From positions 1 through 64,000 of the IMG/VR virus record IMGVR_UViG_2974778606_000001: 64,000 bases of DNA; one strand, written 5' to 3'. Positions 15,563-20,635 of this stretch are shown one piece after another. Source of the stretch: a virus. Its lineage: Duplodnaviria > Caudoviricetes. The translations under genes and the position numbers were made by a program. Position 1 is the first letter of the stretch. Each line of letters starts with the position of its first letter. Under the pieces are notes generated by a model. It worked only from the letters and a program-made list of their open reading frames with translations. It was not told the DNA's origin and did no database searches.

Positions 15563-15633
15563 AGCCCCGCAAGAGAATCGAACTCTTAACTCTTCATTAC
15601 GAAAGAAGTGCGTTACCATTACGCCAGCGGGGC
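15563..15633 (-). tRNA. tRNA-Thr(CGT)
   Basis: Cloverleaf: GCCCCGC/GCGGGGC acceptor, GCGT/ACGC D-arm, anticodon loop TTCGTAA, AAGAG-TTCGATT-CTCTT T-arm; no encoded CCA; one T-T mismatch in the anticodon stem. Confidence 0.88.
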
Positions 15634-15643
15634 AGTGGTGGAA

Positions 15644-16117
15644 TCAGAGCTTCCACCTGGCTCGTCTACGACGACGACGGGATTTCTTTACCTTTATCAC
15701 ACTCAGTATACACAAAGCAACGGCTATCGTCAATACTGTAGGTGATGCTCCGAAGTAGAACAAAACACCAGTGAATCCGAATAGCGCTATACGTAGCTTC
15801 CATAGCCTGCTAATCATACTGGGTCGTCTTGGTGCCGGGCGCGTTGAGCCTGCGAATCGTGCACCTTTGCTTTGGTTACATCTCAAATGAGCTAGGGCGA
15901 CATTTCCCCATACATGGCCAGGCGAATCTTTCCTCCATGAAAGGGGAACGATATGGTCCAAAGACGCAGACCTTGGGTGAGGGTATTTCAGATTACGTCT
16001 TACCCTCTTGCCACACAAGTGACATTTCCAATTTGACTGCGCGTAAACCTGAGCCCTTGTGATGCTTGGGTCATATGGAACGCCATACTCTATGCAACGC
16101 TCCTCATCAGTTTTCAT
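15644..16117 (-). CDS. HNH endonuclease with C-terminal transmembrane hairpin (leaderless)
   Basis: CHLCG..SLDHIVPLS..GHVWGNVALAHLRCNQSKG, then two hydrophobic segments and an Arg-rich tail; TATGAT-6nt-ATG. Confidence 0.8.
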   Translation of the reverse strand: MKTDEERCIEYGVPYDPSITRAQVYAQSNWKCHLCGKRVRRNLKYPHPRSASLDHIVPLSWRKDSPGHVWGNVALAHLRCNQSKGARFAGSTRPAPRRPSMISRLWKLRIALFGFTGVLFYFGASPTVLTIAVALCILSVIKVKKSRRRRRRARWKL

Positions 16118-16866: not shown

Positions 16867-17037
16867 TCAATCCTGGAAGACCAGATGATTGTACTTGATT
16901 ATCTGAACATTCTTAGCACCATCTGCTTCAAGTTCCTTCTTCTCCAGTTCTGCTTCTGGCTTGGATAGAAGTTCATCAGTTTCTTTTACCTTACCATTCA
17001 AGGTATATCTTAGATAAAATCTATGATTTCTATTCAT
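16867..17037 (-). CDS. Hypothetical protein
   Basis: MNRNHRFYLRY...; AAGGAG RBS. Confidence 0.6.
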   Translation of the reverse strand: MNRNHRFYLRYTLNGKVKETDELLSKPEAELEKKELEADGAKNVQIIKYNHLVFQD

Positions 17038-17077
17038 ATTAGTTATATCTCCTTGGGATAGATTAGTAAGAATCTTT

Positions 17078-17159
17078 ATGGAGTTACGTAGTAACTCCAT
17101 CTACTAACATCGTTAGATGTTAGTAGTTAATTTATATAGTCCCGCTTTGAAAAAGCGGG
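17078..17159. repeat. Three adjacent inverted repeats in an AT-rich tract
   Basis: ATGGAGTTAC/GTAACTCCAT (17078-17100), CTACTAACATC/GATGTTAGTAG (17101-17126), CCCGCTTT/AAAGCGGG (17141-17159). Confidence 0.85.
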
Positions 17160-17255
17160 TCTTACACACCCCCCAGAGTCGAAATCTGAAGCAGTGACCG
17201 CAGAGGAAGGTAAGACCCTTGGAGAACCCTTCGACTGTCGCTCGGATTTTTGGGC

Positions 17256-17412
17256 AAAAGAAAATGCCCCAAGAGGCCGCAACTCCTCTCGGGGCATTTC
17301 AAACGAATAACCCACGATGTTGGTTGCGGCAACATCCTGTTCTCCATTCAGAATAGCACAACCAACACCATGGGTCAAATCCACTGTAGTTGAGGCATAG
17401 CTCAACCAACTG
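17256..17412 (-). ncRNA. Putative structured small RNA (~155 nt), family unknown
   Basis: Promoter TTGACA-17-TACGAT; 20-bp helix with 4 G-U pairs valid only on the minus strand; 15-bp terminator stem plus U tract. Confidence 0.7.
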
Positions 17413-17417
17413 ATATA

Positions 17418-17446
17418 ATCGTAGCACAACTCATAGAGCATGTCAA
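17418..17446 (-). promoter_or_regulatory. Near-consensus sigma70-type promoter
   Basis: TTGACA (17446-17441), 17 bp, TACGAT (17423-17418). Confidence 0.75.
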
Positions 17447-17644
17447 CGACTATCTCGGGCACTGCATATGCATGCGACGCTTCTCCTTGACAGTGGCACG
17501 AAGCCTCTCACCAATCTTGATTGGCTTTCCACAGTCTATACAGGGGATGCCAGCATCGTCCTCGGTTGCCTTCCAAGGCTTGTAGACAGCGATGGAAGCA
17601 GCATGACGACCGATTTTTTTCACTTATCCTCCAGAAAGGTAAAT

Positions 17645-18613
17645 ATGGATATCAGCTTTTCAACGATTCCGGGCAATTTGAACACGACCATCGGATATGG
17701 CGTGGCCGGATTCAACATGGTTCGAAGTCTACAGAAGCTAGGACACAGAGTCCCCTTCGCAGACAAGAACTGTAAGATTGAGATTTTCTTTGCTCAACCA
17801 GATTACTGGGAATGGAGCAACCAGTTCTCCTACCATATCGGATACACCCCTTGGGAGTCAACCCAATTGCCACCAGGCTGGCTTGAGAACATGAACCTTG
17901 CTGATGAGGTCTGGACGACATCAGAACTGATTCGCAGATGGTACACAGCAGCCGGTGTGAAGAATGTCAAAGTTTACCCACATGGCATTGACCCTCAATG
18001 GACTCCTAAGAAGAGAAACGTCTATGAGAGGATGCGTTTTCTGCACATGGGAGAGCCTGCACCTCGAAAGGGTGGACAAATGGCAGTCGACGCATTTCGG
18101 GCGGCATTCGGAGACAGCACAGACGTAGAACTGACTGTCAAGGCTCACAGACTTAACAATACCAGGCGCATGCACAACGGTCGTATCCTTGGACCAATCA
18201 CAGACTACAACAATGTAAGACTGGTTACACAGGAATTGCCAGAAGACCATCTCGTCAGCTTTGTGAAGTCTTACCACGTGATGGTATATCCTAGTTGGGG
18301 AGAGGGTTTCGGTCTCATTCCGTTCCAGGCAATCGCCACAGGAATGCCCACAATCTGCACTGAGAAATGGGCGCAATACAAGAGCTATCTGGGACCACTA
18401 GGACTTGATTCAAAGCTCACGGACTCACCATGGCCCGGTGTGCACCCAGGAAAGATGCTTGAACCAAACTTCGATGATTTGGTGGACAAGTACCGATATG
18501 CATACGAGAATTTCGATGCTCTGAGCAATCAATTCTACGCTCAGGCACCCAAATTGCACGAAGAGTACAACTGGGAAAAGCTCACAGAAGCAGCCTTCGC
18601 CCACTTGATTTAA
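17645..18613 (+). CDS. GT-B (family 4-like) glycosyltransferase
   Basis: GYTPWES, DEVWTTS, PHGID, PRKGG, YPSWGEGFGLIPFQAIATGMP; start MDISF with GAAAGG RBS. Confidence 0.85.
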   Translation: MDISFSTIPGNLNTTIGYGVAGFNMVRSLQKLGHRVPFADKNCKIEIFFAQPDYWEWSNQFSYHIGYTPWESTQLPPGWLENMNLADEVWTTSELIRRWYTAAGVKNVKVYPHGIDPQWTPKKRNVYERMRFLHMGEPAPRKGGQMAVDAFRAAFGDSTDVELTVKAHRLNNTRRMHNGRILGPITDYNNVRLVTQELPEDHLVSFVKSYHVMVYPSWGEGFGLIPFQAIATGMPTICTEKWAQYKSYLGPLGLDSKLTDSPWPGVHPGKMLEPNFDDLVDKYRYAYENFDALSNQFYAQAPKLHEEYNWEKLTEAAFAHLI

Positions 18614-18691
18614 GTGGGCGTTTGCTGTAGCATAGTAGAACTACGCGATGATTAGCCGTGTCTGCCAAGCACGGCCGGAAGGGATTTTGTT

Positions 18692-20635
18692 TTGACTTTG
18701 GTTGATGACAAGGGCTTCCTAACGGACCCTTACAGAAACTTCATCCACACCAGTCGATATGCAAGGTACCGTGATGACCTTGGACGACGAGAGACATATG
18801 TGGAAACTGTTGACAGATACATGGATTACATGGTCAACAGCCTTAAAAAGAATCACGATTACGATGTTCCTGAAGCAGACTACAAGCTGGTTCGGGAATT
18901 TATTCTTGAGCAGGCAAGTATGCCAAGCATGCGAGCCATGATGACGGCAGGCCCGGCACTCGATAGAGACAATGTAGCAGCTTATAACTGTTCTTACGTC
19001 ACTATTGACGACCCACGAGCATTCGATGAGACCCTGTACATTCTGATGAATGGAACAGGCGTCGGCTTCTCTGTTGAGGAGAAGTATGTCCGTAAGCTGC
19101 CTGTCATTGCAGAAGAGTTCGAAGCTACAGAAACAGTAATTAAGGTAGCTGACAGTAAGGAAGGTTGGGCACGAGCATATCGTGAACTACTAAGTCTTCT
19201 ATGGGGCGGTCGCGTTCCTCGTTGGGATACCTCTAAGGTACGTCCTGCGGGCGCGAGGCTAAAGACTTTTGGTGGCCGGGCATCTGGTCCAGGTCCACTA
19301 GAGCAGCTTTTTCAGTTCACCATTGACGTGTTCTCAAAGGCGGCCGGTAGGCAGTTGACCTCCCTTGAAGCTCATGACCTTGTATGTAAGATTGCAGAAG
19401 TAGTTGTTGTCGGTGGTGTAAGGCGTTCAGCGCTTATTTCACTTTCTGACCTCAGTGACCTTCGCATGGCTACAGCAAAGTCCGGTAGCTGGTGGGAAAA
19501 CCATCCCCAGCGTTCCCTTGCGAACAATTCAGTTGCCTACACTTCAAAGCCAGACATGACAGCATTCATGGCTGAGTGGAAGAACCTTTACGACAGCAAG
19601 TCTGGCGAAAGAGGAATCTTCAATAGGCAGGCTGCAAAGGCTCAGGCAGCTAAGAACGAAAGGCGAGATGGTAATTTCGACTTCGGAACTAATCCATGTA
19701 GCGAGATTATCCTTCGACCTAATCAGTTCTGTAATCTGACTGAGGTTGTTGTCCGACCAGAAGACACTGTTGAAACTCTGATGCTTAAGGTCGGAGCCGC
19801 CACAATCCTCGGAACGTGGCAGTCAACTCTTACCAGCTTCAAGTATCTTCGTAAGGTTTGGAAGAAGAACACTGAAGAAGAAAGACTGCTTGGCGTTTCT
19901 CTTACCGGCCAGTTCGGTAACAGACTGATGTCAGGCCAGGAAGGCATGAAGGAGCTTAAGGACGCCCTTGAAGCTCTAAAGTACAAGGCTGTTGCAGTAA
20001 ATGCTCAGGTTGCCGATGCAATTGGCATTCCTCGCTCTGCTGCAATTACCTGTGTCAAGCCTTCTGGAACTGTTTCACAGCTTGTTGGCGTTCCTTCTGG
20101 AATGCACACTGAGCATGATGAATTCTACCTGCGAACTGTGCGAGGAGACAACAAGGACCCTCTTACTCAGTTCCTCAAGGACAGTGGAGTTCCAAATGAG
20201 CCTGACGTAATGAAGCCAAACGACACCACAGTCTTTAGCTTCCCGAAGAGAGCAGCAGAAGGTGCGCTCACTCGAAATGACCTTACTGCAATCGAGCACC
20301 TTGAGATTTGGCTAGCTTATCAGCGTCATTGGTGTGAGCACAAGCCATCTATCACTGTTTCTGTAAAGGAGCACGAGTGGATGGAAGTAGGGGCTTGGGT
20401 TTACAAGCATTTCGATGAGGTGTCAGGAATTTCATTCCTTCCATTCTCTGAGCACACCTACAAGCAGGCTCCATATCAGACCATTACCGAGGCAGAGTAC
20501 AAGGAATGGCTTGAGAGAATGCCTGACGAGATTCAGTGGGACCTTCTTCCAACCTATGAGGAAGGCGACAATACGACTGGTTCACAGGAGCTGGCCTGTT
20601 CAGCAGGGGCTTGTGAAGTCGTAGATATTGGTTGA
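18692..20635 (+). CDS. nrdJ: Class II (B12-dependent) monomeric ribonucleotide reductase
   Basis: YNCSY, GTGVGFS, VVVGGVRRSA, TNPCSEI, CNLTEV, TCVKPSGTVSQL, C-terminal ACSAGAC. Confidence 0.93.
   Translation: MTLVDDKGFLTDPYRNFIHTSRYARYRDDLGRRETYVETVDRYMDYMVNSLKKNHDYDVPEADYKLVREFILEQASMPSMRAMMTAGPALDRDNVAAYNCSYVTIDDPRAFDETLYILMNGTGVGFSVEEKYVRKLPVIAEEFEATETVIKVADSKEGWARAYRELLSLLWGGRVPRWDTSKVRPAGARLKTFGGRASGPGPLEQLFQFTIDVFSKAAGRQLTSLEAHDLVCKIAEVVVVGGVRRSALISLSDLSDLRMATAKSGSWWENHPQRSLANNSVAYTSKPDMTAFMAEWKNLYDSKSGERGIFNRQAAKAQAAKNERRDGNFDFGTNPCSEIILRPNQFCNLTEVVVRPEDTVETLMLKVGAATILGTWQSTLTSFKYLRKVWKKNTEEERLLGVSLTGQFGNRLMSGQEGMKELKDALEALKYKAVAVNAQVADAIGIPRSAAITCVKPSGTVSQLVGVPSGMHTEHDEFYLRTVRGDNKDPLTQFLKDSGVPNEPDVMKPNDTTVFSFPKRAAEGALTRNDLTAIEHLEIWLAYQRHWCEHKPSITVSVKEHEWMEVGAWVYKHFDEVSGISFLPFSEHTYKQAPYQTITEAEYKEWLERMPDEIQWDLLPTYEEGDNTTGSQELACSAGACEVVDIG

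Follow-up and report, generated by a model that had tools for sequence, protein, structure and literature searches.

Several phage RNAs pair with the transcript from which they come, among them the c4 RNA of phages P1 and P7. The CI RNA of P4, in which seqB pairs with seqA and seqC, and IsrK of Gifsy-1 likewise pair with their own transcripts (PMC4825925). All are stable small RNAs from the start of a transcription unit of a temperate phage or satellite, where they control immunity or an antiterminator, and their targets overlap a ribosome-binding site or cause termination. The results presented here reveal that large lytic Streptomyces phages carry a genuine gene for a non-coding RNA that is so far in no catalogue. 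It lies at positions 17256–17446, on the minus strand, of a 64,000-nucleotide stretch of DNA (the window; positions 1 to 64,000 of IMG/VR virus record IMGVR_UViG_2974778606_000001). The gene is apparently made as a long and a short RNA from two back-to-back promoters, P1 and P2. Its best-conserved feature, missed by an earlier reading of the window (the original prediction), is the complementarity of the terminator loop, termed alpha*, to a site in the 3' arm of a long helix, termed alpha. The best guess is that the RNA functions as a self-contained RNA–RNA switch.

Like the P4 CI, c4 and IsrK RNAs, the RNA described here is a small RNA predicted at the start of a phage transcription unit, and it has a loop complementary to a same-sense site, with the complementarity compensated between relatives. 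As with IsrK, there would be two isoforms with different pairing states. Unlike these RNAs, it belongs to a lytic phage, both partners lie within ~90 nt upstream of one terminator, and no downstream target was seen. Masking of the pairing site would also be set differently, by a second promoter embedded in the RNA and not by processing.

The window covers the left part of the genome of a lytic Streptomyces siphovirus, 132,885 bp (133 kb) long and with direct terminal repeats, which is assigned to the BE cluster (Stanwilliamsviridae, Boydwoodruffvirinae). The region from 17450 to 17100 is conserved in 85–87 BE-cluster Streptomyces phage records, across four genera of the Boydwoodruffvirinae (Samistivirus, Karimacvirus, Coruscantvirus and Tomasvirus). 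Twenty-four relatives were fetched for comparison, and Naboo was then added (25 in all). In every fetched relative except EGole, the locus is a gap of 380–565 nt that holds no annotated feature, and EGole is likewise the only listed record with an annotation there.

In the window, alpha (17330–17323, minus strand, GCCGCAAC) and alpha* (17283–17276, minus strand, GTTGCGGC), the latter in the terminator loop, form a perfect Watson–Crick match of 8 nt. The match is equally perfect, over 7–11 nt, in all 25 sequences analysed, which together contain about 15 distinct versions, and the alpha site always falls at transcript position 81–90. By comparison, loops and arms paired across phages and shuffled loops match over 4.0 nt on average, and only 1.7% of shuffles reach at least 7 nt. 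The extent of the covariation can be seen from the alpha* loop and the alpha site of individual phages, which read GUUGCGGC and GCCGCAAC in the window phage, GGUCGCAAC and GUUGCGACC in EGole, GGUCGCAUC and GAUGCGACC in NootNoot, AGGUGGAG and CUCCACCU in Battuta, UUGGUCCCAGC and GCUGGGACCAA in StarPlatinum, UGGGUGGAGC and GCUCCACCCA in Tomas, and GGGCCAGC and GCUGGCCC in Yaboi. Further homologues obey the same rule, namely two IMG/VR contigs, Jay2Jay, Wofford, Naboo and seven soil-metagenome contigs, and one of these homologues adds another version. The 10–11-nt alpha words of StarPlatinum and Tomas have no further copy in those genomes beyond the two sites. Since these words occur nowhere else there, alpha and alpha* are taken to be each other's partners. 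The shorter 8-mer of the window phage has six matches in its genome, about the chance expectation.

Counts of base pairs over whole alignments agree with this picture. In a six-sequence alignment that includes the kissing helix as a pseudoknot, 94.6% of cells are paired, compared to 89.3% after shuffling and at most 44% when the partner columns are displaced by sliding, and 8 pairs change on both sides where 2.3 are expected. A covariance-model alignment covers 19 distinct sequences; its share of paired cells is 94.2%, and compensatory change is seen at 20 of the 24 pairs, although these alignments were partly fitted to the structure and the 19-sequence count is thereby biased upward. The original prediction had named compensatory substitutions in homologues as a check, and such changes are present.

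The alpha* loop crowns a strong terminator. The hairpin (17262–17299, minus strand) has a stem of 15–16 bp and an 8-nt loop, and the U tract (17256–17264, TTTTCTTTT) follows it directly, as in an intrinsic (Rho-independent) terminator; the tail on the plus strand is weak (TTTC). The terminator, which the original prediction had described as 15 bp long, was identified by folding and was not listed by a simple terminator scan. In 24 of 24 relatives, a strong hairpin with a T-run lies 135–192 nt downstream of the P1 -10; its 12–16 GC-rich pairs, of many different stem sequences, are followed by T4–7.

Three putative promoters of the sigma-70/HrdB type define the control region. Each has a TTGACA-like -35, a spacer of 16–18 nt, a TAnnnT -10 and optionally a TG at -15/-14, from which promoter activity is predicted. 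P1 (17418–17446, minus strand), with the sequence TTGACA-17-(TGC)TACGAT, is supported by both consensus and conservation; its hexamers are invariant in 25 of 25 relatives, as is TACGATTATATCAG. P2 (17350–17378, minus strand) reads TTGACC-17-(TGC)TATTCT, scores 9/12 with TG in a promoter scan and coincides in the DNA with the 5' arm of the long helix. It recurs in all 25 relatives as TTGACN-17/18-TAnnnT, 67–71 nt after P1, and TG precedes the -10 in 22 of them; the -35 is TTGCAC in Paradiddles and Mildred21. At all three promoters the constraint is limited to hexamers, TG and spacing, and the P2 spacer sequence varies freely. It is because the former are kept while the spacer drifts that P2 is read as a sigma-70/HrdB promoter. 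The P2-class motif occurs seven times in the window, where 0.23 occurrences are expected, and copies at 925 and 7093 lie within the terminal repeat. The original prediction had proposed one promoter and one RNA of ~155 nt. P1 is indeed where it was placed, but a second conserved promoter lies within the 5' arm of the helix, and two co-terminal RNAs are therefore expected.

The third promoter, P_R (17390–17419, plus strand; TTGAGG-18-TATAAT with TG, the extended -10 being TGATATAAT), scores 10/12 with TG in the promoter scan and points towards the genes for the glycosyltransferase and ribonucleotide reductase. As TTGnnn-17/18-TGATATAAT, it is retained by 24 of 25 relatives. The invariant TATATCAG after the P1 -10 reads CTGATATAAT on the opposite strand, which is a perfect extended -10 of P_R. 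The P_R -10 overlaps the P1 -10 by 2 bp, and the P_R -35 falls within the 5' hairpin of the long RNA. P1 and P_R should therefore compete for RNA polymerase, and the overlap of these divergent promoters suggests that polymerase binding at one excludes binding at the other.

The long RNA would start from P1 and extend over 17256–17411 (~155 nt), and the short RNA would start from P2 and extend over 17256–17343 (~87 nt), both on the minus strand and with 5' ends assumed to lie about 7 nt after each -10. The minimum-free-energy fold has an energy of -77.2 kcal/mol, compared to -44.2 ± 3.8 kcal/mol for 200 dinucleotide shuffles (z -8.7). Every feature described by the original prediction is present in the sequence where it had been placed. 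In the long RNA, folding and covariation support a 5' hairpin, H1 (17385–17409, minus strand), in which pair 19:24 is GC in 7 sequences, CG in 7, UG in 2 and AU in 1, and pair 17:26 is AU in 13 and GU in 6. The long helix, specific to the long RNA, consists of 20 consecutive pairs between a 5' arm (17357–17376) and a 3' arm (17309–17328), both on the minus strand, and includes the four G–U pairs that had been noted (17376:17309, 17370:17315, 17368:17317 and 17358:17327). It encloses an apical stem-loop (17329–17356, minus strand), in which the P2 -10 pairs with CAGGATG and in whose loop the P2 RNA is expected to begin. All relatives are predicted to form a hairpin across the P2 -10.

In the short RNA, an alternative hairpin is predicted, SL-A' (17316–17336, minus strand), with a GATGTTG/CAACATC stem and a 7-nt loop that carries alpha. 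SL-A' was proposed independently by RNAalifold, and seven of its nine pairs (the 7-bp stem and two outer model pairs) show compensatory change. The predicted fold of the short RNA places alpha exactly in the hairpin loop in about 20 of the 25 phages. The layout in these phages is a 7–8-bp SL-A' with a 6–7-nt alpha loop, sometimes a middle hairpin, and a terminator with alpha* in its loop. The predicted length of the P2 RNA is about 70–90 nt, or about 115–125 nt in a clade with two terminators. In that clade (Daubenski, BoomerJR, Anedea, Peebs, Wofford and Naboo), the RNA is longer, and a second strong terminator lies behind the alpha* hairpin; the alpha* hairpin of Naboo lacks a U tract altogether and has a separate terminator after it. 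The arrangement in Naboo and the Daubenski clade argues that alpha* would not primarily be a termination device.

In the long RNA, the P2 -10 is predicted to pair with the 5' half of SL-A' and the P2 spacer with its 3' half, and SL-A' therefore cannot form. The predicted probability that alpha is unpaired in the window phage is 0.99 in the short RNA versus 0.17 in the long RNA. Across phages, the mean for alpha is 0.75 in the short and 0.28 in the long RNA, whereas alpha* is mostly unpaired in both (0.72 and 0.87, respectively). For the window phage, the coupling energy of the helix is -24.9, compared to -5.8 ± 2.6 when only the 5'-arm spacer is shuffled (z -7.4). The 20-bp helix described by the original prediction is indeed real and strong in the window phage; it is also the least conserved part, with pairing of spacer and 3' arm significant in 11 of 19 lineages. 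The full helix is best read as a reinforcement, particular to this lineage, of a masking that alpha undergoes more generally. A universal three-way complementarity, in which the 5' arm would be a copy of alpha*, was also considered; it holds in the clade of the window phage and fails generally, with coupling non-significant in 8 of the 19 lineages.

That the element is an RNA of the minus strand is supported by its folds: in 22 of 25 phages the sense strand folds more stably than the antisense strand, with a mean difference of 10 kcal/mol and more G–U pairs. This bias, which the original prediction had anticipated from the four G–U pairs, favours a minus-strand RNA over a DNA palindrome. Also supported is the proposal made there of a structured, unannotated non-coding element where transcription diverges. 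The original prediction had further stated that there is no credible open reading frame (ORF) or ribosome-binding site inside. A GGAG-N6-ATG at 17347 does open a frame of 61 codons, so the claim needs amending to that extent, but no frame is kept across relatives. Protein coding was rejected, as the frames of 111, 61 and 42 codons are not kept in relatives and the stop-free frames shift between phages; the GGAG-N6-ATG frame of EGole stops after 11 codons. The RNA body drifts in sequence while shape and loop complementarity are conserved, and the most sequence-conserved parts are the promoter cores. Identity is 81% for the RNA alone and 87% when the block downstream of the terminator is included. 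Because the body varies while its flanks are conserved, the RNA is unlikely to hold a conserved seed that recognises a host or phage mRNA.

The original prediction did not recognise the family, and the RNA belongs to no known one. Rfam 15 at gathering thresholds gives no match at the locus in the window. At E values up to 10, the locus gives only chance matches to miRNA and ctRNA families, at 15–17 bits where the cut-offs are 50–100, and nothing better than E 0.3 was obtained for 14 related loci. A covariance model of the short RNA (R1) finds one full-length copy per related genome and one in the 132,885-bp genome. No paralogue was found with this model, and the downstream block is likewise single copy in the genome by BLAST. 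A metagenome scan gave 18 matches, of which seven are true homologues fitting the model and 11, without P2, look unrelated. One IMG/VR match (L044) was set aside as a chance match.

EGole, the exception to the unannotated gap, carries a 95-nt tRNA-Arg annotation (anticodon GCG; MK494112.1, 19296–19390) over SL-A' and the terminator. ARAGORN reproduces this call, using SL-A' as the anticodon arm. ARAGORN finds no tRNA at the locus in the window, and among the fetched and listed records only EGole annotates one. A tRNA or tRNA-like identity, which rests on the EGole call, was rejected, and the EGole annotation is probably an artefact.

Taken together, these results are interpreted, with about even confidence, as a non-coding early transcription unit in a three-promoter control region, which encodes a self-contained alpha:alpha* riboregulator with isoforms set by promoter choice. 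P1 and P2, both sigma-70/HrdB-like with extended -10 elements, would read leftward in tandem into one strong shared intrinsic terminator and yield two co-terminal RNAs of ~155 and ~87 nt. The short RNA would present two hairpins with perfectly complementary loops, alpha in SL-A' and alpha* in the terminator, that could kiss. The long RNA would carry as its 5' extension the sequence of the P2 promoter itself, which would pair with the SL-A' region, bury alpha and leave alpha* free. Since the P2-derived extension is predicted to mask alpha in the long RNA only, the promoter that fires would decide whether alpha is hidden or shown. The RNA would act by alpha:alpha* pairing rather than by a conserved seed, as a riboregulator of the early control region, and the ratio of its isoforms would be set by competition between P1 and P_R.

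The pairing probably takes place between molecules, as short–short dimers or long–short pairs, because the linkers of some relatives are too short for both hairpins to kiss within one molecule. The hairpins are separated by 5–8 nt in Coruscant, Targaryen and CeilingFan and by 12–16 nt in the window phage. By a geometric estimate for the three former phages, a linker of 5–8 nt at up to ~7 Å per nt would have to span ~27–30 stacked bp at 2.8 Å each. A closed head-to-tail dimer would need only short linkers. A more specific proposal is that of a natural, tecto-RNA-like phage RNA: the short RNA would dimerise with itself head to tail, held by two alpha:alpha* kissing helices, with assembly switched by promoter choice and the long isoform, its alpha buried, acting only as a cap. 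This proposal is speculative and rather doubtful.

Several points weigh against the self-contained riboregulator. No target or output was identified. The masking helix between the spacer and the 3' arm is not significant in 8 of the 19 lineages and is weak in LukeCage, StarPlatinum, Coruscant and others, and one metagenomic relative has a non-matching spacer yet an intact alpha/alpha* pair. In the clade of Daubenski, BoomerJR, Anedea, Peebs and Naboo, alpha is single-stranded and not in a loop, so a loop–loop geometry is not universal. The free variation of the RNA body would also be compatible with a role in cis or one of structure alone. P2 may have little activity, or P1 may occlude it. The two promoters, the two 5' ends and termination are predicted from sequence, and no transcriptomic, transcription-start, Northern or small-RNA report was found in the literature searched on BE-cluster phages. 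Kissing is proposed from complementarity and covariation, and the alignments behind the pair counts were, as mentioned above, partly fitted to the structure.

Three other described systems resemble the locus in part. The pRNA of phi29 is also an early, promoter-proximal phage RNA with two mutually complementary loops that co-vary between relatives while the rest drifts, and it pairs between molecules, as is proposed here. Unlike the RNA described here, pRNA pairs its loops over 4 nt in the context of a three-way junction and serves the packaging motor of small podoviruses. In the present siphovirus, with its 133-kb genome, the complementarity joins a small hairpin to a terminator loop and spans 7–11 nt; the Rfam pRNA model gave no match, and no helix closes the 5' and 3' ends. 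The control RNAs of plasmids ColE1 (RNA I/RNA II) and R1 (CopA/CopT), which are strongly expressed, share with it GC-rich, replicon-specific loop–loop recognition over 6–8 nt and a short terminated RNA. Their partners come from opposite strands and are complementary throughout, whereas here both partners lie on one strand and only the loops are complementary. In the cobalamin riboswitch, an upstream hairpin loop (L5 of the aptamer) pairs with the loop of a downstream regulatory hairpin (L13 of the expression platform), in a similar order. Unlike the riboswitch, the locus has no conserved ligand-binding core and no Rfam match.

The kissing loops of the cobalamin riboswitch expression platform offer a precedent for a different explanation, in which the element is a cis-acting leader or attenuator. 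P1 and P2 would drive the leftward operon, and the terminator would be a regulated stop with read-through set by the 5' end or by alpha:alpha* pairing. The RNA has the orientation of the downstream genes, a consensus scan of the minus strand from 17256 to 15733 gave no further sigma-70-type promoter, and a strongly conserved structured block follows the terminator. Terminated and read-through forms that interact are also known for IsrK (PMC4825925). However, the terminators are very strong, with two in a row in one clade, the complementarity ends at the loop and does not invade the terminator stem, and the sequence contains nothing conserved that resembles a ligand pocket. In Naboo, where the hairpin without a U tract is followed by its own terminator, alpha* is not tied to termination. 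An attenuator is thus considered doubtful, though worth weighing. Conservation of shape and loop complementarity, and not of sequence, would fit an RNA that works by its shape, with the short form self-assembling through alpha:alpha* into closed dimers or larger complexes as a protein scaffold or decoy, and the long form as a non-assembling cap. The short linkers of Coruscant, Targaryen and CeilingFan favour intermolecular pairing on geometric grounds, and phi29 pRNA, ROOL, GOLLD and OLE are phage-associated RNAs that form multimers. This explanation is judged unlikely: assembly is predicted from sequence, the longer linker of the window phage would permit pairing within one molecule, alpha is linear in one clade and nests with alpha* as an ordinary helix, and no partner protein is evident nearby.

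The remaining explanations fare less well. Tandem promoters are found at the primary origin of T7 and R-loops at the origins of T4, and P1 and P2 could similarly activate or prime an origin of replication in an AT-rich inverted-repeat region ~150–250 bp downstream. The cumulative GC skew has its minimum at 17–19 kb, transcription diverges at the locus, and an AT-rich tract with two perfect inverted repeats lies at 17078–17126; a change of coding strand explains the skew switch equally well, a strong terminator separates the promoters from the tract, and the covariation of alpha and alpha* would have no role. An origin element is accordingly quite improbable. Very improbable, too, is that the RNA has no function and that the promoters matter as DNA only, through competition with P_R, supercoiling or as a sink for RNA polymerase, with the terminator insulating the leftward genes and the hairpins being DNA palindromes or protein sites. 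The promoter cores are the most conserved sequences and the overlap of the P1 and P_R -10 elements implies competition, which speaks for this explanation, but without pairing one can hardly account for about 15 co-varying versions of alpha:alpha* and for compensation at 20 of 24 stem pairs. A DNA-level palindrome or protein site was rejected on account of the G–U strand bias, such pairs being tolerated on the minus strand only, and of half-sites that differ between phages. Finally, the 5' arm of the long hairpin carries TTGACC...TGCTATTCT and the 3' arm is complementary, so that the hairpin would be an RNA copy of a consensus promoter and could act as a 6S-like decoy of RNA polymerase. The chance of this is next to nil, as the DNA promoter itself explains the conserved hexamers, many relatives have only a weak helix, 6S models give no match at E values up to 10, and in place of the large central bubble between two long helices that marks the ~180-nt rod of 6S RNA, the fold shows a hairpin ending in an apical loop. 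The original prediction had suggested an abundant phage sRNA, for example a decoy of RNA polymerase or of a defence protein, an antitoxin mimic or a replication regulator; these are guesses, and no observation made here lends specific support to any of them. The self-contained riboregulator is the reading that is preferred over these alternatives.

The RNA gene sits in the gap between rightward and leftward gene sets, and transcription thus diverges there. The rightward set begins with a GT4-type glycosyltransferase (17645–18613), followed by ribonucleotide reductase. The leftward set comprises a 56-aa protein (from 17037), an SLT transglycosylase, an HNH nuclease and tRNA-Thr (15563–15633), the sole Rfam match in the window. 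A promoter-like TTGACG-17-TATACT (15705–15733, minus strand) is found within the 3' end of the HNH gene, a short way upstream of tRNA-Thr. The window phage has ~180 extra bases (17450–17623, minus strand) between P1 and the start of the glycosyltransferase gene at 17645, where relatives have ~12 nt. This insert contains a 57-codon ORF with a GTG start, a GGAGGA ribosome-binding site and a CxxC...HxQC pattern, for which no homologue was found in the phage collection and no Pfam domain was detected.

The block on the other side, 3' of the terminator (17100–17256, minus strand), is structured and more strongly conserved than the RNA itself. In it, GGGUCUUAC...GUAAGACCC pairs, and becomes GGGUCCUAC...GUAGGACCC in Coruscant; the block also contains a CCCGCU...AGCGGG hairpin, ACTATATAAATTA, and two perfect hairpins ahead of the ribosome-binding site of the 56-aa gene. 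In Paradiddles, Mildred21, Yaboi, StarPlatinum and Targaryen, it is replaced by a different block of ~300 nt with a G9 run. The minimum of the cumulative GC skew, at about 17000–19000 in the window, coincides with the coding-strand switch.

Large lytic actinophages have been sequenced by the hundreds, yet their non-coding RNAs are almost unknown, and this RNA was missed by annotation. The unusual design proposed here is that of a promoter inside an RNA gene, whose sequence would double, in the longer transcript, as the strand that hides the pairing loop. Experiments could draw on the ~15 naturally compensated alpha/alpha* pairs as ready specificity controls. If the self-dimerising form of the proposal is true, the short RNA would be a small, genetically tractable relative of the phage-associated ROOL, GOLLD and OLE RNA-only multimers, with a built-in on/off isoform. 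If the riboregulator is confirmed, these phages would have a compact means by which competing promoters in an early, divergent control region yield two RNAs that differ in their pairing state.

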